IMG/VR virus record: IMGVR_UViG_2861069343_000007
Span: 1-37,030 of that record
Origin: a virus
Taxonomy: Duplodnaviria > Heunggongvirae > Uroviricota > Caudoviricetes
DNA: 37,030 bases
Strand: one strand, 5' to 3'
A model generated the notes under the pieces. That model was not told the origin of the DNA, did no database searches, and saw only the letters and a program-made list of their open reading frames with translations. Below, one piece after another: positions 2,621-35,898 of the stretch. Positions within the stretch are counted from its first letter, which is position 1, and the number at the start of each line of letters is the position of its first letter. The position numbers and the translations under genes were made by a program.

Positions 2621-2732
2621 AACTGAAGTTGCCCTGAAAATGAAATTTTTTTGCACAACCGCAGAACTTTTCCGCAGGGCATCAGTCTTAATTAGTGCCA
2701 CTGCTTTTCTTTGATGTCCCCATTTTGTGGAG

Positions 2733-2776
2733 CCCATCAACCCCGCCATTTCGGTTCAAGGTTGATGGGTTTTTTG
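2733..2776 (+). terminator. Rho-independent terminator-like hairpin downstream of ybjL
   Basis: 10-bp stem cccatcaacc / ggttgatggg (2733..2742, 2760..2769) followed by tttttt (2770..2775). Confidence 0.5.
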
Positions 2777-2855
2777 TTGCCTGAAATTTAAGCTATTTAA
2801 AATCATGATGTTAGAAACACTGTTTTTTAACGATGGCGACAAAATGGCGGCAGCG

Positions 2856-17811: not shown

Positions 17812-18015
17812 TCAGTCCCATAGCTGGACGGTCTGCACGGTGGTGGTGGTCGGAATGTCCGGCAACTCCACCTGCAGCCCGTGAGGTAAAAAGGGGCCGT
17901 ATTCGGCAAGCCCCGGATTTGCCTTCAGTACCTGCTCCGTGACACCCTGCGTGCGCCCGTAATGACGCCAGCAAAGCGCGTCCACCGTGTCATACTGATG
18001 CGCACGCACTTTCAT
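17812..18015 (-). CDS. X: Tail protein gpX
   Basis: 67 aa; P2 X-like (…YGRTQGVTEQVLKANPGLAE…). Confidence 0.85.
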   Translation of the reverse strand: MKVRAHQYDTVDALCWRHYGRTQGVTEQVLKANPGLAEYGPFLPHGLQVELPDIPTTTTVQTVQLWD

Positions 18016-18362
18016 CAGATAAGCTCCACTGTGCAGTGCGGCGCATCCTGCACCCGGCTGATGGCCCAGCGGGCGTCACGCCACAAATCACCGCTTGCTT
18101 CCGCCAGTTCCTCGCCCCGCTTCACACCGGACGCCGTGGCGTCATAGTCCTGGTAACGTTCGTTGAGCATGGCGCGTGCCCAGCAGTAAACCGCGTTGAA
18201 ATAGTGCTGAATGCGCTCACTTTTGCCGTCCAGCTGTTCCGCCGGAACCTCTGCCAGCGACGCATACCCCAGCATCTGCTGGCGTCTGCGAAACTCATAC
18301 AGCTCTGCGTTGACCTCCGAAATTGCCGACAGCGCAACCTGCTTTAAACGCGGCTGCGTCAC
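18015..18362 (-). pseudogene. L: Head completion protein gpL, N-terminally truncated (C-terminal ~2/3 only)
   Basis: 115 aa aligning with the C-terminal part of P2 gpL (…NAELYEF…DLWRDARWAISRVQ…); GTG start abuts the stop of the N fragment. Confidence 0.65.
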
Positions 18363-18715
18363 AGGTCCAGCTTCGCGTAGGTCAGCACCGTGTCAAAGTT
18401 GGTCTGCTCGCATTTATATTCCACATCGACCATCAGCGTCGGATCGACAGGTTCACGCTCTTTCGCGGTGGTGTCAGTGGTTCCGGCAATGGTGCTGCCA
18501 ACTCCCAGCCCCAGCAGCTGACCGGACTGCTCAGTCACTGGCGTGACGTTAATCAGCGTCAGGAAAGCGGCGGACTGCTGGATCTGGTCTTCCAGCGTCT
18601 GCTGCACAGACGGCTCCACGGTGAACTTGCTGGACAGTTCTTCAACTGCCACACCGTTCAGACGCGCCAGCTGCTGCAGGTAAGCGTTAAAAGCAAAGCG
18701 GGTATTCTTCTTCAT
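18359..18715 (-). pseudogene. N: Major capsid protein gpN, N-terminal fragment (118 aa of an expected ~350 aa)
   Basis: MKKNTRFAFNAYLQQLARLNG…FTVEPSV… matches the P2 gpN N-terminus; stop at the position where gpN normally continues. Confidence 0.65.
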
Positions 18716-19707: not shown

Positions 19708-21474
19708 ATGAACACCACACTGACACCCGCAGATCTCGATCCCCGTCGGCAGGCCATGCTGCTGTACTTTCAGGGATACCGCGTAGCCCGCATTGCTGAA
19801 ATGCTGGGCGAGAAAGTTGCAACCGTTCACAGCTGGAAAAAACGCGACAAGTGGGGTGACTATGGGCCGCTGGATCAGATGCAGCTCACCACCGCCGCCC
19901 GCTACTGCCAGCTCATTATGAAGGAGCACAAAGAAGGGAAAGATTTCAAAGAAATTGACCTGCTGGCGCGCCAGTCGGAGCGCCACGCGCGGATCGGCAA
20001 GTTTAACAATGGCGGCAACGAAGCCGACTTAAACCCTAACGTCGCCAACCGCAACAAAGGGCCGCGCCGTCAGCCGGAAAAGAATGTTTTCACCGATGAA
20101 CAGATTGAGAAGCTGGAAGAAATCTTCCATTCCTCCATGTTCAACTACCAGCGCCACTGGTGGGAAGCAGGAAAAACCAACCGCATCCGTAATCTGCTGA
20201 AGTCACGCCAGATCGGCGCGACCTTTTACTTTGCCCGTGAAGCCCTGATTGACGCCCTGCTTACCGGACGTAACCAGATTTTCCTTTCTGCCAGTAAGGC
20301 ACAGGCTCACGTCTTTAAGCAGTACATCATCGACTTCGCCAAAGAAGTCGAGGTGGAGCTGAAAGGCGATCCGATGGTGCTTCCTAACGGGGCCACACTT
20401 TACTTCCTCGGCACCAATGCCCGCACGGCTCAGAGTTACCACGGCAACCTGTATCTGGATGAATATTTCTGGATACCGAAATTCCAGGAGCTGCGCAAAG
20501 TGGCTTCCGGTATGGCTATTCACAAAAAATGGCGACAAACCTATTTTTCTACGCCATCCAGCCTGACACACAGTGCTTATCCGTTCTGGTCCGGTGCGCT
20601 GTTCAACCGTGGGCGCAACAAAGCCGACAAGGTGGACATCGACCTGTCCCACAGCAATCTGGCCCCCGGCCTGCTGTGCGCAGACGGGCAATACCGCCAG
20701 ATAGTCACCGTGGAAGATGCAGTGCGCGGCGGCTGTAACCTGTTCGACCTTGACCAGTTGCGCATGGAGTACAGCCCGGACGAATACCAGAACCTGCTGA
20801 TGTGCGAGTTTGTGGACGATCTCGCGTCCGTGTTCCCGCTCAGCGAGCTGCAGGCGTGCATGGTGGACAGCTGGGAAGTCTGGACCGACTTTCATGCACT
20901 GGCGCTGCGCCCATTTGGCTGGCGCGAAGTGTGGATCGGTTATGACCCGGCAAAAGGTACGCAGAACGGCGACAGTGCCGGATGCGTGGTGCTGGCACCG
21001 CCAGCCGTGCCGGGCGGTAAGTTTCGCATTCTTGAGCGTCACCAGTGGCGCGGGATGGACTTTCGCGCCCAGGCTGACGCCATCAAAAAACTGACCGAAC
21101 AGTACAACGTGACCTATATCGGCATCGACTCAACCGGCGTTGGTCACGGGGTTTACGAGAACGTGAAAGCGTTTTTTCCTGCCGTCCGGGAGTTTGTCTA
21201 CAACCCCAACGTTAAAAACGCCCTGGTACTCAAGGCTTACGACATTATCAGCCACCGCCGTCTTGAGTTTGACGCCGGACACACCGACATTGCGCAGTCA
21301 TTTATGGCAATCCGTCGCGCCACCACCGCCAGCGGCAACCGCCCGACCTATGAAGCCAGCCGCAGCGAAGAAGCCAGCCACGCCGATCTGGCGTGGGCAA
21401 CCATGCACGCACTGTTTAACGAACCGCTGCAGGGCGAGTCCGCCAATACCAGCAATATTGTGGAGATTTTTTGA
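19708..21474 (+). CDS. P: Terminase large (ATPase) subunit gpP
   Basis: 588 aa; P2 gpP-like; divergent from O. Confidence 0.9.
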   Translation: MNTTLTPADLDPRRQAMLLYFQGYRVARIAEMLGEKVATVHSWKKRDKWGDYGPLDQMQLTTAARYCQLIMKEHKEGKDFKEIDLLARQSERHARIGKFNNGGNEADLNPNVANRNKGPRRQPEKNVFTDEQIEKLEEIFHSSMFNYQRHWWEAGKTNRIRNLLKSRQIGATFYFAREALIDALLTGRNQIFLSASKAQAHVFKQYIIDFAKEVEVELKGDPMVLPNGATLYFLGTNARTAQSYHGNLYLDEYFWIPKFQELRKVASGMAIHKKWRQTYFSTPSSLTHSAYPFWSGALFNRGRNKADKVDIDLSHSNLAPGLLCADGQYRQIVTVEDAVRGGCNLFDLDQLRMEYSPDEYQNLLMCEFVDDLASVFPLSELQACMVDSWEVWTDFHALALRPFGWREVWIGYDPAKGTQNGDSAGCVVLAPPAVPGGKFRILERHQWRGMDFRAQADAIKKLTEQYNVTYIGIDSTGVGHGVYENVKAFFPAVREFVYNPNVKNALVLKAYDIISHRRLEFDAGHTDIAQSFMAIRRATTASGNRPTYEASRSEEASHADLAWATMHALFNEPLQGESANTSNIVEIF

Positions 21475-22499
21475 TGGGAAAGAGTAAGAAAAACCGCGCT
21501 GCGGCGACGAATCAGATCCAGCATAAAAACCAAACTTCAGTCGAAGCATTCAGCTTCGGTGATCCCGTTCCTGTTCTGGACCGCCGCGAACTGCTGGACT
21601 ATGTGGAATGCGTACAGACAGATCGTTGGTATGAGCCGCCAGTGAGTTTCGACGGGCTGGCGCGCACCTTTCGCGCCGCCGTGCATCACAGCTCACCGAT
21701 TGCAGTAAAGTGCAACATTCTGACCAGCACCTACATCCCTCACCCGCTGCTCAGCCAGCAGGCTTTTTCACGTTTTGTGCAGGACTATCTGGTATTTGGT
21801 AACGCCTACCTGGAGAAACGCACGAACCGCTTCGGTGAAGTTATCGCCCTTGAGCCTGCTCTGGCAAAATACACCCGACGCGGGTTAGACCTGGATACCT
21901 ACTGGTTTGTGCAATACGGTATGACAACCCAGCCGTATCAGTTCACGAAAGGCAGCATTTTTCACCTGATGGAACCGGATATCAACCAGGAGATCTACGG
22001 CCTGCCCGGTTATCTTTCTGCCATTCCGTCAGCCCTGCTCAACGAGTCCGCCACGCTGTTCCGCCGCAAGTATTACATTAACGGCAGTCATGCAGGCTTC
22101 ATCATGTACATGACCGATGCCGCGCAAAACCAGGAGGATGTGAACAACCTCCGCAACGCAATGAAAAGCGCCAAAGGACCGGGTAACTTCCGCAACCTGT
22201 TTATGTACTCGCCTAACGGCAAAAAGGATGGGCTTCAGATCATTCCTCTGTCAGAAGTCGCGGCGAAGGATGAGTTTCTGAATATCAAGAACGTGAGCCG
22301 GGACGACATGATGGCGGCGCACCGCGTACCGCCGCAAATGATGGGGATTATGCCTAGCAATGTCGGGGGGTTTGGGGATGTGGAGAAGGCTAGTAAGGTA
22401 TTCGTAAGAAACGAATTGATGCCCCTGCAGAAACGATTGCAGGAACTAAATAACTGGTTGGACGAAGAAGTGCTCAATTTTTCAACCTATGAGCTTTAG
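21471..22499 (+). CDS. Q: Portal protein gpQ
   Basis: 342 aa; P2 gpQ-like; start overlaps P stop. Confidence 0.9.
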   Translation: MMGKSKKNRAAATNQIQHKNQTSVEAFSFGDPVPVLDRRELLDYVECVQTDRWYEPPVSFDGLARTFRAAVHHSSPIAVKCNILTSTYIPHPLLSQQAFSRFVQDYLVFGNAYLEKRTNRFGEVIALEPALAKYTRRGLDLDTYWFVQYGMTTQPYQFTKGSIFHLMEPDINQEIYGLPGYLSAIPSALLNESATLFRRKYYINGSHAGFIMYMTDAAQNQEDVNNLRNAMKSAKGPGNFRNLFMYSPNGKKDGLQIIPLSEVAAKDEFLNIKNVSRDDMMAAHRVPPQMMGIMPSNVGGFGDVEKASKVFVRNELMPLQKRLQELNNWLDEEVLNFSTYEL

Positions 22500-22535
22500 T
22501 TTTAAAACGAAGACCATTAGGTCTTCGCTTTATTT
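22500..22535. terminator. Bidirectional terminator between convergent Q and retron RT
   Basis: 8-bp stem cgaagacc / ggtcttcg (loop atta), flanked by ttttaaaa upstream and ctttattt downstream; RT stop codon lies in the loop. Confidence 0.55.
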
Positions 22536-23479
22536 AAAGGGTTCTTTCCATATTTTTTTTCTAATTTGCTAATATAAGCTATTAATCTTCTATGGCTTTT
22601 TGAATCCACACTTAAAATAAATGACAACCATCCCCTAACGTGTTCTATCTCAGAAGATTTACCGCAAAATATATGATGTATCTTTGCTCTAATTTCTTTA
22701 TATTTTTCTCTACCTATCCCAACTTTCTCTTGTGAAATAACTAAACCTGTAACTTTCCTCTGACTACGAGGCCCACTAATACAAGTTTTTTTTGAGTTAA
22801 TAACCAATCCTTCACTTGGGATTATAGAAAATAAAAAATCACGTGCTTTAACAACCTTTTTCATAGACTGTGCAGATAAGGTGAGATCATCGGCATATCT
22901 CGTATATATCAAGCCCCGACTACCTGCATAGCCCTGAATACGATAATCAAGTTTTGAACATATTAGATTAGCTAATTTAGGTGATGATGGAGCACCTTGT
23001 GGTAGCAGATTTTTATAACAACATATTTTTGTCAAAACTGAAGATATTAGTCGATTATAACCAAGAGAATGGAACACTCCAAAAACTTTGTTAGCAGTTA
23101 AACTTGGGAAAAAATCCTCCAAATCAATATTCAGTATAAAGTTTGCCCCAATATGCGGGGTAGCATTATTCAAAATAGATTGGTGCTTTTCAAATCCAAT
23201 AGAAAAAGGAGATGACGACAGTTTATCTAAAATGTTACGTAGAACCCATCCTTGTAAGGCTTTAAGTTCTCGAGAAGGTTGGTAAATGGTTCTCATTCTC
23301 TTCTCTGGGCCTTTCTTTTCTACAGTGTAGATCCTATAGCGAAAATCAGCTGTATAGATTAACAACCGAAGTGTTTCAACAGATATGCGAGTCGCCTTAG
23401 ACATGTCATGCAAATTGTTCATGACAGGTAGGCCGAGATTTCTCAATCTAAAAGTGTTCAAATATTCAGCGGATTTCAT
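22517..23479 (-). CDS. ret: Retron reverse transcriptase (Retron-Eco1 / Ec86 RT)
   Basis: 320 aa; RT motifs including YADD (YTRYADDLTL); start codon 7 nt downstream of the a2 repeat of msr-msd. Confidence 0.93.
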   Translation of the reverse strand: MKSAEYLNTFRLRNLGLPVMNNLHDMSKATRISVETLRLLIYTADFRYRIYTVEKKGPEKRMRTIYQPSRELKALQGWVLRNILDKLSSSPFSIGFEKHQSILNNATPHIGANFILNIDLEDFFPSLTANKVFGVFHSLGYNRLISSVLTKICCYKNLLPQGAPSSPKLANLICSKLDYRIQGYAGSRGLIYTRYADDLTLSAQSMKKVVKARDFLFSIIPSEGLVINSKKTCISGPRSQRKVTGLVISQEKVGIGREKYKEIRAKIHHIFCGKSSEIEHVRGWLSFILSVDSKSHRRLIAYISKLEKKYGKNPLNKAKT

Positions 23480-23485
23480 GAAAGT

Positions 23486-23654
23486 TGCGCACCCTTACGT
23501 CAGAAAAAACGGGTTTCCTGGTTGGCTCGGAGAGCATCAGGCGATGCTCTCCGTTCCAACAAGGAAAACAGACAGTAACTCAGATTCAATGCAGGATGCC
23601 GAAACAACATCCAGAGGTTGACCTTAATGATAAACCTCTCGCTAAGGGTGCGCA
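23486..23654 (-). ncRNA. msr-msd: Retron msr-msd non-coding RNA (Ec86 msDNA template)
   Basis: Plus strand 23499..23585 reads gtcagaaaaaacgggtttcctggttggctcggagagcatcaggcgatgctctccgttccaacaaggaaaacagacagtaactcaga, recognised as Ec86 msd; flanking inverted repeats a1/a2 TGCGCACCCTTA at 23643..23654 and 23486..23497. Confidence 0.9.
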
Positions 23655-24565
23655 TACGGAATCTTATCATAGTTAAATGTTGATTTTCTACGGTTTTCAA
23701 AATTCATAATCTCAAGCCGCAATCGGTCAAGTGTCTTTCTATCAAAGACGCTCCTAACATAGCTAGCCCCCAAAGCAGTGACCTGATAACCATCAGTCAT
23801 TTGAAGTATTTTTCGTTCATTTATTAGACGAGAAACAACGGATCTAACAATAATTTTAGATAAAACATCATCTTGCTTTATCGCTTTAAAAGCTAGTTCA
23901 CACAGTGTGCGGTAGTTGACACTATCCAGTAAATAGATACAAGGCAATAGAAACCGCTCTGCGTATAATATATTTCCAATATCTTTTGATACTTTATTTT
24001 CTTTCCTAACCTGCTTAATAGATGCCATTAATTTTTTATATAATCGTAATTTTCTGGCAACATCAATAGATGAATCACACATTTCTTTTAGTTCATTTGA
24101 ACTACAACGCAAAACAGATTTTGAATTAAACTTACGCAACAGGCGAACAGGACCATAGTTAATAAAGCTACGTTTTGATTTAAATTTTGCATCTTGAATG
24201 CAAATCAACTTTCTCCTTAAGTTTTCATTATTAGAGAACGCACCAAGCTCTGTGAAAGACCCCGGACTTTCAGGAAATAAAATTATTACATCGACAGCTT
24301 CAGCCAGAATATTTTCTAAACTTAAAAGGCTATGCTGCCCTTGACCAGCCAAAAGATCATCAAATAGATCTTCTGGATAAAATATATCAACATCACTGAA
24401 CTTTGCTAAAAATTGTGATAATTGATGACGCCAAGATTGATGATTAGCAACGTCACCACCACATAGAAAAATGGTTATTTTAATATTAGCTCCTCGATAG
24501 AAGCCTTTCTTTGTGAGATGTCCTATAAGCTGTTGTTGCTGCTCATCGGTAAATTTTTTATTCAT
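23642..24565 (-). CDS. Retron-Eco1 accessory effector (nucleoside deoxyribosyltransferase-like domain protein)
   Basis: Immediately upstream of msr; start assigned to MNKKFTDEQ (ATG 24565..24563, GGAG 4 nt upstream) though in-frame ATGs exist upstream (24595, 24754); stop overlaps a1. Confidence 0.75.
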   Translation of the reverse strand: MNKKFTDEQQQQLIGHLTKKGFYRGANIKITIFLCGGDVANHQSWRHQLSQFLAKFSDVDIFYPEDLFDDLLAGQGQHSLLSLENILAEAVDVIILFPESPGSFTELGAFSNNENLRRKLICIQDAKFKSKRSFINYGPVRLLRKFNSKSVLRCSSNELKEMCDSSIDVARKLRLYKKLMASIKQVRKENKVSKDIGNILYAERFLLPCIYLLDSVNYRTLCELAFKAIKQDDVLSKIIVRSVVSRLINERKILQMTDGYQVTALGASYVRSVFDRKTLDRLRLEIMNFENRRKSTFNYDKIPYAHP

Positions 24566-24637
24566 AATCTCCCCGCTTTTTTCTACTTTATACATCAAGT
24601 TATGAATAGATCCAATCTCCATACCCCATGGCGCGCG

Positions 24638-24656
24638 CTCGTATCCCCGCCACGCC
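24638..24656. other. Candidate cos site (cohesive end)
   Basis: Minus strand reads GGCGTGGCGGGGATACGAG, resembling the P2 cohesive end GGCGAGGCGGGGAAAGCAC as recalled; inside a short GC-rich patch between two AT-rich islands. Confidence 0.4.
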
Positions 24657-24874: not shown

Positions 24875-25876
24875 ATGGGTGGAGAGACTTCGGCTATACA
24901 ACGAGTCGCGGGTAAGATTTCTGATGATATTTTCTCAGTGTTCAAATGGGATCGTGCCGCTAGAGCGGACATGAATTGGGATTGTTGCCAAGAGGCTCAT
25001 TCCAAGAAAACACATCCAAGCGATGTTGTATTTTTCTACATAGATCCATATGAGGAGGAAATGGTCTATCTCAACACAGACCTCAAAAGCTATGCAGAAG
25101 GTACTATTGGGAAAAAAATAGTCGAGGGAGCTTTAACATCGCTTGCTTTAGCTACCGAATGTGCAAATGTCAGTGAAGAATGGCGATTGAAATATGTTCA
25201 TGATGATTCTTTAGGTTATAACGTAAGAGGGTTATTATTCTTATATAACCATGATAATTTATATGATAAAGACTTCTATGAGAATATTACAAAAAAATTA
25301 GATCACTCATCTATAAATTGCCCTCCAAACATCAAACTACATTTGCTTGACCCTTATAAAATATCAGATTTGATAAACATATCTTCTGACATAACTAAGT
25401 TAATTGGTTCAGGCAAACTTCCTCAACCTGATAAGTTCACATATTATTATCCAGATCTTTCCCTAACAAGAATAAAGCACCCTATTAATCAGACAACACC
25501 TGCAACAATTGAATTATTAACATCACCATACATTATAATAAAGCATGAGGCTTTCAGTTGGCTCAGGGATAAAAACCCTGAGGGATATGTTGTTTATTAC
25601 AATCAACCGGGGGATTCAGTAGACGAATTCGTTTACTTCTTTGATATGTTATCAACTTATCAGATATTAACCGAAGGTAAACCAATCGTATTACGCCATT
25701 GTCACATTCACCCAAATGAAAATGCCATTCATCATTTTGAAAGAGCGAAAAAGAAATACAGCACAGACTGGCTCTTAGGCGAGGATGAAAGACTTTTTCT
25801 TAAAATTGACTTCGACAAGACAGACAAAATTGTTGTTGAATATAATCTTGAACAAATCGGCATGGAGCAACGATAA
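24875..25876 (+). CDS. Hypothetical protein, first gene of three-gene cargo operon
   Basis: 333 aa; AGGAG upstream; AT-rich codon usage unlike the phage backbone; no family recognised by eye; possible PD-(D/E)xK-like pattern VVFFYID…NTDLK (speculative). Confidence 0.7.
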   Translation: MGGETSAIQRVAGKISDDIFSVFKWDRAARADMNWDCCQEAHSKKTHPSDVVFFYIDPYEEEMVYLNTDLKSYAEGTIGKKIVEGALTSLALATECANVSEEWRLKYVHDDSLGYNVRGLLFLYNHDNLYDKDFYENITKKLDHSSINCPPNIKLHLLDPYKISDLINISSDITKLIGSGKLPQPDKFTYYYPDLSLTRIKHPINQTTPATIELLTSPYIIIKHEAFSWLRDKNPEGYVVYYNQPGDSVDEFVYFFDMLSTYQILTEGKPIVLRHCHIHPNENAIHHFERAKKKYSTDWLLGEDERLFLKIDFDKTDKIVVEYNLEQIGMEQR

Positions 25877-26955
25877 TGGCTAAAAAACTATATTTCGCAA
25901 CTGATAAAAATATTTATGATGCATTACATCATAAAAGGATAACCGCTGCAAAGTTGCATGAATTATTGTTGAATCGAGGTGTGTTTTTATCACCAGAACT
26001 CGACAAGGAAATACTAATCGAGGAAATATCCAAACTTCCTCACGGATTTAATGAATTAGAACACATAAAAAAACTGGTCAAAACATATGACCCAAGGGAA
26101 AGCACTACTAGTGTGAGCTTCCAAACCTCAACAAATCAGGCCGAATTAAAAAGTGCTGCTGAAGCACTAAAAAAAACATGCTCCCCTAGTAAAGGTCAAA
26201 GCCTGAATATTGTAGCTAAAAAAGATGGCTCGCTTACAGTAGAATACAAATATGAAGAAATAGACCTGTCTAAAACTGCATTACGTCAGATCGACAAGCG
26301 GAATGTTATAATAGAACTTCGCCCTGGAGCTGACAAAGTTGAAGTACGTATGCCTCAAAACCCCGAGGCAAAAAAAGTTATTGAGAGCTTGCAAAACGAG
26401 CTATCTAAAATCAAGTCCGAACCTATCGAGCGCTTCGAAATATCATTACTAGCAATAACTGATCCTACATTGCGAAGTCAGTTTTTTCAGGAATTAATGA
26501 ATGGTCTACGCGGTTATGAGACTGATGACGTAACAAAAGTCGAATTAAATCGCAGTACTGATGCTAGTGAGGATGAAGACAAGGAAGAAACTATTGATAC
26601 CGGATTTGTTAAGAAAGCTGTCCTTAATGGTGAAGGGGTAAATAGTTCAGCTATATTTTCTCAACTACATGAGAAAGGTTATTATATCGGGCGTATTGCA
26701 TGGTCTTCAAAGCCGACAAGTGGAATTGGAGACAGAATCAACGTCGAAGCATTTTTCAAAGACTCAGAAAAATGCTGTGACTTTGCCTATCAAATTAAAG
26801 GTATAAACAATCAAAAAGAAGACGGTTTCAATGTAACCATTCGCGCGGCAACAGCACAAGAGAAAAAACATATTAGTGAATTAATTGAGTCCGCCGCTGA
26901 AAATGCCTATAATATAATAATAGGATCAGAGGTGAACGAAGATGAAAAAGGTTAA
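25876..26955 (+). CDS. Hypothetical protein, second gene of three-gene cargo operon
   Basis: 359 aa; start overlaps upstream stop (TAATG); charged and Lys/Glu-rich; no recognisable motif. Confidence 0.7.
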   Translation: MAKKLYFATDKNIYDALHHKRITAAKLHELLLNRGVFLSPELDKEILIEEISKLPHGFNELEHIKKLVKTYDPRESTTSVSFQTSTNQAELKSAAEALKKTCSPSKGQSLNIVAKKDGSLTVEYKYEEIDLSKTALRQIDKRNVIIELRPGADKVEVRMPQNPEAKKVIESLQNELSKIKSEPIERFEISLLAITDPTLRSQFFQELMNGLRGYETDDVTKVELNRSTDASEDEDKEETIDTGFVKKAVLNGEGVNSSAIFSQLHEKGYYIGRIAWSSKPTSGIGDRINVEAFFKDSEKCCDFAYQIKGINNQKEDGFNVTIRAATAQEKKHISELIESAAENAYNIIIGSEVNEDEKG

Positions 26956-27625
26956 ATGGCTTAAGTTAAACATACGGCTTGAGTTTGAAACAGCCGTTAG
27001 ACGTCTTTCTCTTGATTCTTTTACAGAGGATAAAGGGAAAGGGTTCATTTTTGATAAAATACGCCATGATTTTGCAAATGGTCGCTTTGTCGAGCGTATT
27101 GTTTATCATGATAAAATATTAAGCTTTGACGGAAGCGAAACTACCGTTGAAAGAATCGAATATCGCACCACAAATTTTAGCGTGGCTTTAGACTCTCTTC
27201 CTGTAATGCAGATTACTAACCCACCCAGAACTTTAAAGCCTTTTTCGCAGGCTTTGGTAAAAAATCTTGGCTTAGGTGTTAGTTTGGAAGAAATTGACAT
27301 AAACCCTATAGACTGGCTTAATGAAATATCTTCAAGTGTAAATATCAATTTAACACAACTTGATATTTCAAGGGTTAGAGTTTCTGATTACGCCACAGCT
27401 AAAATGCAAATAATTGGCAGCAATGATCTTAGGAAGTATTATAAAGAAGAATTAGAGGGTAAAAAAATAAGAATTGACAGGCTTGTTTGCTCTGTTAATT
27501 CATTAGAATATTCCGGTAAGCTCAAGATCACCAATAGCGGCCTTGCTTATATTGATGTTAGAAATGAGAATGAGTTTACGAAAATCGTTTTTGATACGTT
27601 AAAAAAAGTCACCCTTCAATCATAG
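26942..27625 (+). CDS. Hypothetical protein, third gene of three-gene cargo operon
   Basis: 227 aa; 14-nt overlap with upstream gene; no recognisable motif. Confidence 0.7.
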   Translation: MKKVKWLKLNIRLEFETAVRRLSLDSFTEDKGKGFIFDKIRHDFANGRFVERIVYHDKILSFDGSETTVERIEYRTTNFSVALDSLPVMQITNPPRTLKPFSQALVKNLGLGVSLEEIDINPIDWLNEISSSVNINLTQLDISRVRVSDYATAKMQIIGSNDLRKYYKEELEGKKIRIDRLVCSVNSLEYSGKLKITNSGLAYIDVRNENEFTKIVFDTLKKVTLQS

Positions 27626-28306: not shown

Positions 28307-30721
28307 TTAATACAGATCCCGCCACTTATCATCTTCCTGCAAACGCTGGTTCCGATAGAAGATACGCAGGCCTGCTCCTGACGGAATACTGCCGCCGCGA
28401 AGGAGTAAATCGACCTCTTTCTCGCTGCCATCAAATCCTCTGGACTTCAGTTCATAGACGAGCTGCTGTCGTTGATGGTCTGTAATTCGCTGTTTGTAGT
28501 CTCTACGCCGTTTCGGTTTCACCAGGCGTAACCTTGCAGCCAGTTCCCGGCGTTCTTTTTTGTTCATACTGTGCAGGTAATCGTGCAACTCCTTGTCATC
28601 CATACGGGTGATATCCGTTCTGGTATCCCCATCAGCTGATTTGTCTTTCCCTTGTTGGTACAAATTTTCAGCAAGGGGACAGTTATTGCCACGAGTCCAA
28701 GGGGCGCAAGCGCCCTGGTCGGCTACCGCCTCCTGAACGTCAACGGCCTTACGAACCATTTTCCACTTCACTGCATGAGTGCAGATCTTGCCCTCTGAAA
28801 TGGGTGACCAGATGCCATAAATACGAATACCGTGATCGCCATAGGCGGTCGGCTCTTCGTTAATTTCATAAGCGGTTCTGATAAGGTGATATTTGCGGGG
28901 AACCAGTACGCCGCCCTGCTTCATGATGTAGGTGGCAAAACAACCAGCATCAGCAGCAGCCAGGATGGCATCAAGACGCGGGTCATCCAGTACCGGCGCA
29001 CCTGCTTTTTTGTCACCCGGTTGCCTTGCCGCCTGACCAGCCAGCAAGCGAAGTTCACGGTAAGCCTGACGCCCCGGAATGCCAAAGAAGCGGAATTGCT
29101 GAACACGATGCAGAGACGCCCAGGCATTAACGTATTCAGCGTTATCACGCAGGGATTTACCCGTTTCCTTGCTGATCTCGCCAGCCAGACCACGCCCGTC
29201 AATGTTCTTACTGATGTATTTCGCGATGTAGCTTGTTGGCGTACCTTTGCGCGGGTTTATCAGCTCAGACTTAAAGCGTGGTCCCGTGTTATTACCCAGC
29301 TCCTCGCGGTCTTCACGAATGGCAAACTTACGCAACAAAGCAGTAATGGTGCGGCGATCTTTTTTGCGCATAAAACACAACAGGTGCCAGTGAACTGTAC
29401 CGTCATGATGCGGCTCAGCCACCCGCACGCCATACCAGCGCAATCCGGCTTTGTGCATCGCCTTACGAAATGCAGCAAACATGCCGACCAGATAATCACT
29501 GCTTTGTCTTACCGTCGTATTTGTCCAGGTCGGGTTGGGCCTGCCGTTATTTAGCGTGGAATGGAAACGTGACGGACAGGTGATGGTGTAGAAAACGGCG
29601 CAGTCACCGCGCATTTCCGCGATAAGCTCCAGACCTTTAACACAGGCCATCATCTCATTGCGGCGATGCGCAGGGTTGCTGCTGCTGGCGTTTACCACAT
29701 CCTCCATGTCCAGCGTGTCGCCGTCTTCGTTCACCAGTTCATGAGAACGGAAAAACTCCAGCGACTTACGGCGCTGCTCACGTTTATGCATCACGGCTTC
29801 ATAGCTGACATAGGGAGATGCTTTTTTGCTGACCAGGCAAACAGCACGCAACTGCTCTTCCCGCCATTCGCAACGCATCTTCCATAATTTCCGGTACCAC
29901 CAGTCGGCGCACAACATACGCGCCAGCGAACCCGGAATGAGTTCATAGGGCACGGGTTTACGGCGGTTTCTTTTCCGGCGGAGTTGCTCAAACGCAGGCG
30001 GTATGACATCCAGTCGCAGGGTTTCCGCAGCCACCTTTTCCCATGTCTTGCGGATTTCTTCTGGCTTAACATCATCGGTGGCGTACAAATCACCACAAGC
30101 GGCATCAAGACACATGCTCATATGCGCAGCGACAAGAGTAGACAGGCGTTTCACCTGATCCTGACTCATTTCAGGCAAGTTCAGCAGGCCGTCCAGCCCT
30201 TCATGGCTTGCCATAAAGCGAAAAGAAGTGGATAGCTGACTCTCGCGTACATGCTCCAGTCGTTCCAGACATGGCTTAATCGTCTCACGCAAATAGCGGG
30301 AATAAGCCTTTGGCCTGCCCAGGCTGCTGAAGTATTCAATACGTTGCATCAGCGGCTTGCTGATATGGGAAGGCTGGGCGTTAACGTCCGCCAGTATGAC
30401 CATGTCCGGATTAAAACGCTGCTGCTCATGCGCCAGCTTTGCCCGGCTAATGAGCTTATCCTGCTCCATTTCGCGTTGGACAGGATCACGGGATTCATTA
30501 AAGAAATAACGCTCCCAGACCTGATCACTCAGTACCTCGAGGCGCAGTTGTTCCTGCTCGTTATCGGCAGCGTACAGAGTGATCAGGTTTGAAAGCGCAG
30601 AAACCGGCGCAACTTCCGCCGGGTCCAGATAAGGGTTAATAGCCTTTTTCGGGCTGTTCCATGAGAATGCTGCGGCGGCCTCGTTAAAGCCGCTGCAGTT
30701 GTTCATATCAGCATGGCTCAT
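28307..30721 (-). CDS. A: Replication initiation protein gpA (rolling-circle nickase)
   Basis: 804 aa; P2/186 A-like. Confidence 0.9.
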
Positions 30722-31575
30722 GCACGCACTCCGTACACGGCAGAACTATCCACGCCACGCGAAGGATCAAATCCCACCCAGCAGCGCACCCCAGAAACAG
30801 CGATGATTTCTGCTGCAAATTTACTCTCACCAGCTGCTACGCCGATGCTGCGTTTTGCCTTGATGTAGTGGTGAGTAAAATTGCGATACAGCGAACGGAT
30901 CAGGGATGTGTCACTGTTAGAAACAATGACCGGATGTCCTTCTGATGACCGATGTTCAAGAACGGATGCCAGGTGATACTGGTCATCTTCAGTGAAGCCG
31001 TCAGTGTGATAACCGGAAAACGTGCCGTCATACGGCGGATCGCAATACACCACATCCCCCGCCTTCAACATCGCCAGCGTTTCATCAAAGCTGGCGCAGA
31101 TAAACGTTGCCCGCTGAGCTTTTTCTGCAAATGCGCGAATTTCTTTTTCAGGGAAATACGGATTTTTATAATTACCGTAGGGAATGTTGAAATGCCCGCT
31201 CTTGTTATAGCGACATAAACCACGGTAACCGTGACGATTGAGATACAGGAAATATACCGCTTTCATGAAATCAGTAATTTCAGTGGAGTAATTAAACTCC
31301 TGCCTTATGTTGTAATAAGCCACCTCCCTGTTTGCTTCCTCAAACAAAATTCTGGCGCTAGATATAAACGCCTCACAATCAGCAGCAACCTTTTTATAGA
31401 GGTTGATTAAATCAGGATTAATATCCGCAACCAGATAGCTGGGATAATCCGTCTCCATCATCACTGCACAGGAACCCGCGAAAGGTTCAACCAGTCGCGG
31501 GCCAGCAGGAAGATGTTTTTTCAGTTCGGACATAATGGCGGTTTTATTTCCCGCCCATTTCAGGATGGTGCTCAT
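30718..31575 (-). CDS. dam: DNA adenine methyltransferase (orphan Dam-like MTase)
   Basis: 285 aa; DPPY catalytic motif ([12 protein letters not shown]) and N-terminal SAM-binding region; overlaps A start. Confidence 0.85.
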
Positions 31576-34566: not shown

Positions 34567-35898
34567 ATGAGCACAGATATAACTTTCGATATACGTGATG
34601 AATATAAAAGAAAAGCCATTGCAGAAAAAATAATAAGTTTGCTAGAGTCTAATATTCCTGTTTCACCTATGGTCATAGATGGGGACTGGGGGACTGGAAA
34701 AACAGAGTTTTCAAAAAAGTTAGCATCCTTAATTGAAATAAACTCGACCAATCATAAAGTAATTTATATAGATGCTTTTACTGAAGATCACAACGATGCT
34801 CCCATACTTACAATAATGGCCGCAATTGCAGCTCTATATAATAGCGATGAAAAAAAGGAATTAATATCTAAGGCATTGCCAGCCCTCAGATTCGGACTTA
34901 AGACTGTACTCAAAGCTGGTGCTGGTTGGGTATTAAAACAAAATGCGGATGAAATTAATAAGGAATTTGAAGAGGTTATCAAAGACGCTGCAAATTCAGC
35001 TATCGATGGAACCATCGAGGCTCTGTTAGAAGATCATATCGAGGCACAAAAGAACGTTCTTGCTCTAAAAGAAGTACTAACCAAATTAGCTGGAGAAAGT
35101 AAACTAACAATAATTATAGATGAGTTAGACAGATGTAAGCCTAGTTTTGCCATTTCTATTATTGAAAATATAAAACATGTTTTTGATATAAAAAACATTA
35201 ACTTTTTATTAATTGCAAACACAACTCAACTAAAAGCATCCATAAATCATATCTATGGCTCTTCTGTAGACTCCAACCGTTATCTTGACAAATTTATAAA
35301 ATTTACATACAGCCTTCCTGTTACCTTTAAGGAAGATAATTATAATGATACTTTAACTTCCAAAAATCATTGGATGATGCTATGTGAGCAATCTGAAAGG
35401 CTGACCGCTGCAGTAGAAGCCAGCGAAGATATTTTCTTACAGTTCATTGAAAGTAGAAAATTATCATTACGTGAGGTTGAAACACTTGCTAGATATGTTG
35501 AAATATACCAACTACTATCAGGCGACAAAATTAGCAACAAATATATTTATGGATATTGTTATTACAGGACTCTAGCGATAATAATCTACACTTTTAACCG
35601 AGAGTTAGCTCTCAACTTTCTTGAAGATAAAGTTGATGCTCAATCAATCATGAAATTGTTTGGTTTATCTAAATTTTCATATCAAACAAGTGAATATAAT
35701 GTAGATAATTATGAATATGCTATATTTGGAATAGTTTACAAATACTTATCTGAAAACTCATCTCTTTTACCTGCTGAGGAAAATATAAAAAGACAATGGG
35801 CAGAAATGAGTGAATACCATTTTTTAAAAGGTGGTGGCGGTATTGGTGAACCAACAAATATTGTGAAAGATGCTTTAAAAGTTTTTTTACTTCAGTGA
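34567..35898 (+). CDS. KAP-family P-loop NTPase
   Basis: 443 aa; Walker A GDWGTGKTEF and Walker B IIIDELDRCKP in KAP NTPase arrangement; AT-rich; between cI and int. Confidence 0.8.
   Translation: MSTDITFDIRDEYKRKAIAEKIISLLESNIPVSPMVIDGDWGTGKTEFSKKLASLIEINSTNHKVIYIDAFTEDHNDAPILTIMAAIAALYNSDEKKELISKALPALRFGLKTVLKAGAGWVLKQNADEINKEFEEVIKDAANSAIDGTIEALLEDHIEAQKNVLALKEVLTKLAGESKLTIIIDELDRCKPSFAISIIENIKHVFDIKNINFLLIANTTQLKASINHIYGSSVDSNRYLDKFIKFTYSLPVTFKEDNYNDTLTSKNHWMMLCEQSERLTAAVEASEDIFLQFIESRKLSLREVETLARYVEIYQLLSGDKISNKYIYGYCYYRTLAIIIYTFNRELALNFLEDKVDAQSIMKLFGLSKFSYQTSEYNVDNYEYAIFGIVYKYLSENSSLLPAEENIKRQWAEMSEYHFLKGGGGIGEPTNIVKDALKVFLLQ

Follow-up and report, generated by a model that had tools for sequence, protein, structure and literature searches.

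A cassette near-identical to Retron-Eco1 (Ec86) in the portal-to-cos slot of a 186/P2-like prophage of Escherichia coli FDAARGOS_433

Retron-Eco1 (Ec86) is among the best-characterized retrons, its structure, mechanism, trigger and use in genome editing all being known and its location having been in the literature since 1996. It was discovered in strain BL21 (PMC11624263) and is the named example of the type II-A3 architecture, in which an NDT-like effector, an ncRNA (non-coding RNA) and a reverse transcriptase (RT) follow one another in that order (PMC7736814); the same source describes an NDT-like effector with a DNA-binding domain directly upstream of the ncRNA as the ‘Nuc_deoxy+Retron’ architecture. 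The gpA-to-gpQ region around cos is a defence hotspot of P2 phages, with retrons among the 169 systems found there (Rousset et al. 2022, PMC9122126), and Dodd & Egan (Virology 1996, as cited in PMC6868368) described the position of Retron-Eco1 in a 186-related prophage, with cos on one side of it and the packaging-gene terminator on the other. Here we report on a window of 37,030 nucleotides (nt), the whole of the stretch of DNA that was analysed, which is a Caudoviricetes record of IMG/VR (IMGVR_UViG_2861069343_000007) and agrees at 100 % identity with the E. coli FDAARGOS_433 chromosome (NZ_CP023899.1); this strain is a rectal isolate from a human. The region 22517-24565 of this window is almost certainly an intact natural copy of Retron-Eco1, type II-A3, which a 186/P2-like prophage inserted at the 3′ end of rybB carries between its portal gene and cos as accessory cargo. 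The retron, its mechanism and its genomic location are all already known and nothing new was found in this respect; the weight that a first-pass annotation, made from the sequence alone, had given to the locus was too high for a textbook system in a textbook place that has already been published. What the analysis does document is a natural clinical-isolate allele of Ec86, within a prophage that has three known or candidate defence loci, and a defence system bearing an msr-msd RNA that is only half captured by annotation based on open reading frames (ORFs), yet is recognizable from sequence alone.

Identity and anatomy of the cassette

The assignment to Retron-Eco1 is supported by the near-identity of the RT and the effector to the chains of solved Ec86 structures, by the identity of the ncRNA to that of BL21(DE3), by the type II-A3 gene order and by PADLOC and NCBIfam assignments above cut-off. 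In the order of transcription, which runs along the minus strand, the effector gene (24565 to 23642) is followed by a non-coding stretch (23655 to 23486) and then by the RT gene (23479 to 22517), and alignment of the whole cassette as DNA with BL21(DE3) revealed 8 nucleotide differences, with 0 in the ncRNA. The RT matched PDB chain 7v9u_A (‘RNA-directed DNA polymerase from retron EC86’) over its full length, with 319/320 residues identical (E 2e-213) and A302 here in place of T302 as the sole difference, while the effector was identical at 306/307 residues to 7v9x_C / 8qbk (‘Retron Ec86 putative ribosyltransferase/DNA-binding protein’; E 5e-203), the one substitution being Q186 in place of K186. 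The complete effector-msr-msd-RT cassette of Ec86 that the first-pass annotation had proposed is therefore borne out by these comparisons. The cassette is also AT-rich, as had been stated, its GC content being 35.5 % against 54.9 % in the terminase and portal genes and 49.5 % in the whole window. At least 80 % of the query is present in 48 of the 5,426 complete E. coli genomes, many among the matches listed being B/BL21 derivatives. Full-text literature searches with the msr and msd sequence strings returned no papers, so that identity to published Ec86 was established by way of the BL21(DE3) genome and the PDB protein chains and not from a printed sequence of the multicopy single-stranded DNA (msDNA). 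What the analysis showed for this cassette is its sequence identity, its anatomy, its predicted fold and its genomic position.

The RNA component is invisible to ORF-based annotation, as had been pointed out, and RefSeq marks only the two proteins here. Over 281 nt, comprising msr-msd with its flanks, the sequence shows 100 % identity to BL21(DE3) at its Ec86 locus, and so does the interval 23486-23654 within it when aligned to the msr-msd of that locus. The inverted repeats a2 and a1 said to flank the msd are present as TGCGCACCCTTA and TAAGGGTGCGCA (23486-23497 and 23643-23654), a perfect 12-nt inverted repeat with arms 145 nt apart. We take the msd to extend from 23499 to 23584, which are presumably the ends of the published msDNA, and this 86-nt interval, which the first-pass annotation had matched to the Ec86 msd, is likewise 100 % identical to BL21(DE3); its plus-strand sequence, GTCAGAAAAAAC...CTCAGA, would be that of the msDNA. 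A length of 85 nt is given for the msDNA in recent structures (PMC12673091). When the 170 nt from 23655 to 23486 were folded as RNA, the predicted structure paired a1 with a2 in a stem and formed two hairpins in the msr and a long one in the msd, with a minimum free energy of -80.6 kcal/mol compared with a shuffle mean of -45.7 (z -8.7; 0/200 shuffles as good); this fold is a prediction from a single sequence, the sequences compared being identical. In one of the predicted msr hairpins an 8-bp stem is capped by a UUU loop, and this is the RT-binding element known from the literature (PMC6868368). As DNA, the msd interval also gives a long hairpin (-23.6 kcal/mol, z -7.3), with arms at 23514-23538 and 23543-23567, and it holds one CCTGG (Dcm) site, at 23517 in the stem; no GATC was found in the interval. 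Directly 3′ of a1 lies the G of the effector TAG stop codon (23642), in a UUAGC context that follows the retron rule for the priming G (PMC6868368), and from its identity to Ec86 this residue is the expected 2′-OH priming guanosine and putative branch point.

Both proteins are full-length members of the expected families. The RT carries the hallmarks of retron enzymes, namely YxDD, the NAxxH of region X and the VTG of region Y (PMC6868368), in the form of YADD at 195, NATPH at 105 and VTG at 243, and it matches Pfam RVT_1, PADLOC RT_II-A (8e-128) and NCBIfam retron_St85_RT (287.8 bits; cut-off 235). A 320-residue YADD enzyme starting 7 nt after a2 had been described, and this is what the ORF encodes, its ATG being separated from the last a2 base by ACTTTC. 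RefSeq places the start at Met26 (295 aa), 25 codons later than 23479; we favour 23479 because only the 320-residue form encodes the N-terminal helix, which is needed for the dimer contacts of filaments (PMC12673091). The effector matches PADLOC NDT_II-A (3e-94) and NCBIfam STM3845_fam (‘retron St85 family effector’; 176 bits, cut-off 100), and its final codons, ...TAT GCG CAC CCT TAG, run into a1, so that the overlap previously noted is real. All solved structures and the BL21 annotation start it at 24565 (307 aa), and GGGGAG stands upstream of this ATG. Two further ATGs, at 24595 and 24622, share the effector's reading frame in this copy solely because a T-run has 2 nt fewer than its BL21 counterpart, the indel falling 12-13 nt upstream of the effector start codon. 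Of the bounds originally drawn for the cassette (22517-24595), the left edge stood, whereas the right edge turned out to be the upstream in-frame ATG at 24595 and is replaced by the canonical effector start. RefSeq begins the effector at an upstream Met (23642-24622, 326 aa). It thereby departs from the solved structures for both proteins (RT 295 versus 320 aa; effector 326 versus 307 aa), and the annotation is inconsistent between strains.

Table 1. Positions in the window of the cassette components, of the edges of the slot and of neighbouring genes
Feature	Coordinates	Strand	Remarks
Retron reverse transcriptase RT-Eco1 (Ec86)	22517-23479	-	320 aa ORF
a2 inverted repeat (ncRNA 3′ end)	23486-23497	-	12 nt, 100 % complementary to a1
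msd, putative msDNA template	23499-23584	-	86 nt; plus-strand sequence of interval corresponds to msDNA
msr part: a1, priming G, two msr hairpins	23585-23655	-	RNA fold; 3′ boundary with msd approximate
a1 inverted repeat	23643-23654	-	12 nt, fully complementary to a2; 23642 (G) is the next base
Effector, NDT-like N-glycosidase with C-terminal DNA-binding domain	23642-24565	-	307 aa
GC-rich hairpin followed by T-run	22508-22527		Candidate bidirectional terminator; overlaps RT stop codon
Portal gene (P2 gpQ / 186 W homologue), left edge of slot	21471-22499	+	342 aa; Pfam Phage_portal 8.3e-18; RefSeq ‘phage portal protein’
cos, predicted 19-nt cohesive end, right edge of slot	24638-24656		Conserved core ~24630 to ~24690
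Terminase ATPase gene gpP	19708-21474	+	Pfam Terminase_6N/6C/5
3HP three-gene operon	24875-27625	+	AT-rich; ORFs of 333, 359 and 227 aa; directly across cos from retron
KAP-family P-loop NTPase gene	34567-35898	+	443 aa; between CI repressor region and integrase gene; Pfam KAP_NTPase 5e-53

The portal-to-cos slot and the state of the prophage

Comparison with phage 186 and with the retron-less, P2-like phage Cartapus located the insertion between portal gene Q and cos, where it had been placed by the first reading of the sequence. Homology to both phages stops right after the portal stop codon at 22499 and returns at ~24631, which defines a foreign segment of 2.13 kb at ~22500-24630. In phage 186, W ends at 196, the terminator tW occupies 164-187 and the cohesive end 1-19, leaving an interval of 176 nt, in keeping with the claim that the Q-to-cos spacer is normally short. 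Alignment pairs CTCGTATCCCCGCCACGCC (24638-24656) with the 19 nt annotated as the cos end of 186, ATGCTTTCCCCGCCACGCC, and the block surrounding it is identical to the cos annotated in Cartapus; the cos cleavage positions are predicted from these alignments. The same portal-to-cos slot holds DUF4145, TIR/SEFIR-domain and Hypoth_Ymh genes in related phages, and the same retron occupies the same slot in two unrelated isolates, JNE082640 and 20A24, in which the genes across cos differ.

Downstream of the portal gene, the GC-rich hairpin CGAAGACCATTAGGTCTTCG and the T-run that follows it lie between the convergent portal and RT genes. This hairpin is identical in BL21(DE3) and absent at this position from 186 and Cartapus, and it looks like a bidirectional terminator belonging to the insert.

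The window contains almost the whole of a 186/P2-like prophage located between ybjL/rybB and rcdA. The gene for the small RNA RybB (2700-2778, plus strand; Rfam 105 bits) ends with the 14-nt sequence ATGGGTTTTTTGTT at 2765-2778, and this att repeat occurs again just past the integrase gene (34589-34602 of locus L001), so insertion of the prophage appears to have taken place in the terminator at the 3′ end of rybB and to have restored the gene. The prophage copy is defective, its capsid, small-terminase and head-completion region being largely deleted: in RefSeq a major capsid gene lacking its C-terminus abuts a head-completion gene lacking its N-terminus at ~18015-18715 (minus strand), and gene X is separated from the scaffold gene by only ~700 bp, from which it follows that the small terminase gene is missing. 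RefSeq also lists partial tail-fibre-assembly and Fil genes, and there are further pseudogenes in the prophage. The capsid genes of JNE082640 and 20A24 are intact, which argues that the retron travels with the phage lineage. In FDAARGOS_433 it is probably no longer mobilized by the prophage copy on its own. Calling the cassette packaged cargo is thus right where the phage lineage is concerned, but it probably does not fit the copy in this window, whose prophage has a largely deleted capsid region.

Proposed mechanism and alternative explanations

Expression of the cassette, synthesis of msDNA and a defence function in FDAARGOS_433 would be expected from the near-identical BL21 system, and each step of the mechanism set out here is drawn from the literature on that system and carried over to the present copy. 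Our working hypothesis is that transcription of the minus strand would pass through the effector gene, msr-msd and ret, and that the a1/a2 stem would drive folding of the ncRNA. The RT would then bind the msr hairpin and prime from the 2′-OH of the G beside a1 (23642), copying the msd into a hairpin of ~85-86 nt of single-stranded DNA that would remain joined to the msr as msDNA. The resulting RT-msDNA complex would be expected to bind the NDT-like N-glycosidase effector and to keep it restrained in filaments, in the role of an antitoxin, until a phage-encoded Dcm (cytosine) methylase modified the msDNA and freed the effector, which would hydrolyse NAD(P)+ and abort the infection. Filament formation, NAD(P)+ hydrolysis and triggering by Dcm are summarized in PMC12673091 from Wang 2022, Carabias 2024 and Wang 2024. 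The abortive-infection style of defence and the use of Ec86 in genome editing, both mentioned in the first-pass annotation, were found in the literature. The CCTGG site of the msd stem is conserved in the FDAARGOS_433 copy.

The prophage has a DNA adenine methylase gene of its own, at ~30718-31575 (minus strand). Triggering of the retron by this Dam methylase was considered and dropped; as the msd has no GATC, the enzyme is not expected to methylate the msDNA.

Several results weigh against the interpretation of the cassette as an intact and working Retron-Eco1. A search of the whole window against Rfam at gathering score gave no match to a retron family, and RybB was found elsewhere; a search of 23380-23760 at E<=10 again gave no retron family and only chance hairpin matches to miRNA models. 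A promoter scan returned 8 promoter-like sites compared with 8.1 expected from shuffled sequence, and no promoter could be assigned. To these may be added the differences from BL21, i.e. the two substitutions and the shortened T-run upstream of the effector gene. The Rfam result reflects the content of the library and not the RNA: Rfam is without a model that recognizes the Ec86 ncRNA, and the RNA assignment consequently relies on the identity to BL21 together with the fold. Building a covariance model of our own would have been pointless, since the ncRNA is identical to the reference. No evidence contradicting the identification as Retron-Eco1 was met in the analysis, and a different retron of the St85 family was rejected as the identity, the cassette being near-identical to Ec86. 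A sequence of the form TTGGAT-N17-TATAAA upstream of the effector gene (24611 to 24583) was picked out by eye as a candidate promoter.

It could be argued from these results that the cassette is a silent or decaying relic, intact in sequence but not expressed or not functional in this strain. In the prophage around it, most of the major capsid gene is gone, as are the small terminase gene and part of the head-completion gene, and there are other pseudogenes; each protein carries one substitution, the 2-nt indel lies close to the effector start, and the scan identified no promoter. However, both ORFs are full length and the ncRNA is unchanged, the nucleotide differences from BL21 in the RT gene are mostly silent, as expected under purifying selection, and the prophage of BL21 is even more degraded, yet it is the source of functional Ec86 (PMC11624263). 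We therefore consider a relic to be very unlikely. Slightly less likely still than a relic is the idea that the differences from BL21 (T302A, K186Q and the T-run with its in-frame upstream ATGs) give altered regulation or trigger specificity, or that the retron cooperates across cos with the 3HP operon on its far side; nothing in the analysis supports either.

The question of who benefits from an intact Retron-Eco1 is more evenly balanced. There is about an even chance that the cassette mainly serves the prophage and not the host, as a phage-versus-phage weapon placed beside cos and exchangeable among P2-like phages and P4-like satellites. The cos region of these elements is a defence hotspot, some of whose systems act against other P2-like phages (PMC9122126), TIR/SEFIR-domain and DUF4145 cargo occupies the same portal-to-cos slot of related phages, and across cos the cargo differs independently between strains that share this retron. 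This proposal concerns the beneficiary, however, and is not another mechanism; it is compatible with the explanation preferred here, namely an intact natural Retron-Eco1, and the copy in the window is probably beyond packaging by its own prophage.

Known or candidate defence loci nearby and comparison with known systems

Across cos from the retron, the three ORFs of the 3HP operon give full-length PADLOC matches to Hp1 (1e-239), Hp2 (3e-248) and Hp3 (2e-157). Pfam found no domains in these proteins, and NCBIfam only a weak, sub-threshold match of the second protein to GapS4b. Other genes occupy this position in BL21, 20A24 and JNE082640. The KAP-family NTPase gene matches the PADLOC candidate defence family PDC-S20 (7e-171), resembles PifA and QatA more weakly, and is absent from the BL21 prophage; from these matches it is a candidate third defence-type cargo gene of the prophage, alongside the retron and 3HP.

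When the locus is compared with described systems, the closest is Retron-Eco1 of E. coli B / BL21(DE3) (PDB 7v9u, 7v9x, 7xjg, 8qbk-m, 9jm0), which has the same three components in the same order, in the same prophage slot (portal to cos) and at the same chromosomal site (rybB/ybjL to rcdA). The 8 nucleotide differences between the two copies result in RT T302A, effector K186Q and a T-run that is 2 nt shorter. The far side of cos holds 3HP in FDAARGOS_433 but a 336-nt hypothetical gene in BL21, and the prophage is less degraded in FDAARGOS_433 than in BL21. Retron-Eco2 (Ec67), of type I-C, is carried by a 186-related prophage, in which it reportedly takes the place of the same ~180 bp that separate cos from the terminator of the packaging genes (PMC6868368). 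Its RT domain is related to the RT described here (E 4e-34 to PDB 9i2f_C), but Ec67 consists of a single RT-Toprim fusion protein with another ncRNA and no NDT effector (PMC7736814). Retron-Sen2 (St85), of type II-A1, shares the effector family (NDT-like with a DNA-binding domain) and the NCBIfam ‘St85 family’ names for both proteins, although the NCBIfam St85 models gave moderate scores only on the proteins of this cassette; it differs in its RT, which belongs to clade 1 as against clade 9 for Retron-Eco1, and in the type of its ncRNA (PMC7736814). Taken with the hotspot described by Rousset et al. (2022; PMC9122126), the locus is one instance of a known arrangement, in which cos is flanked here by the retron towards Q and by 3HP towards A.

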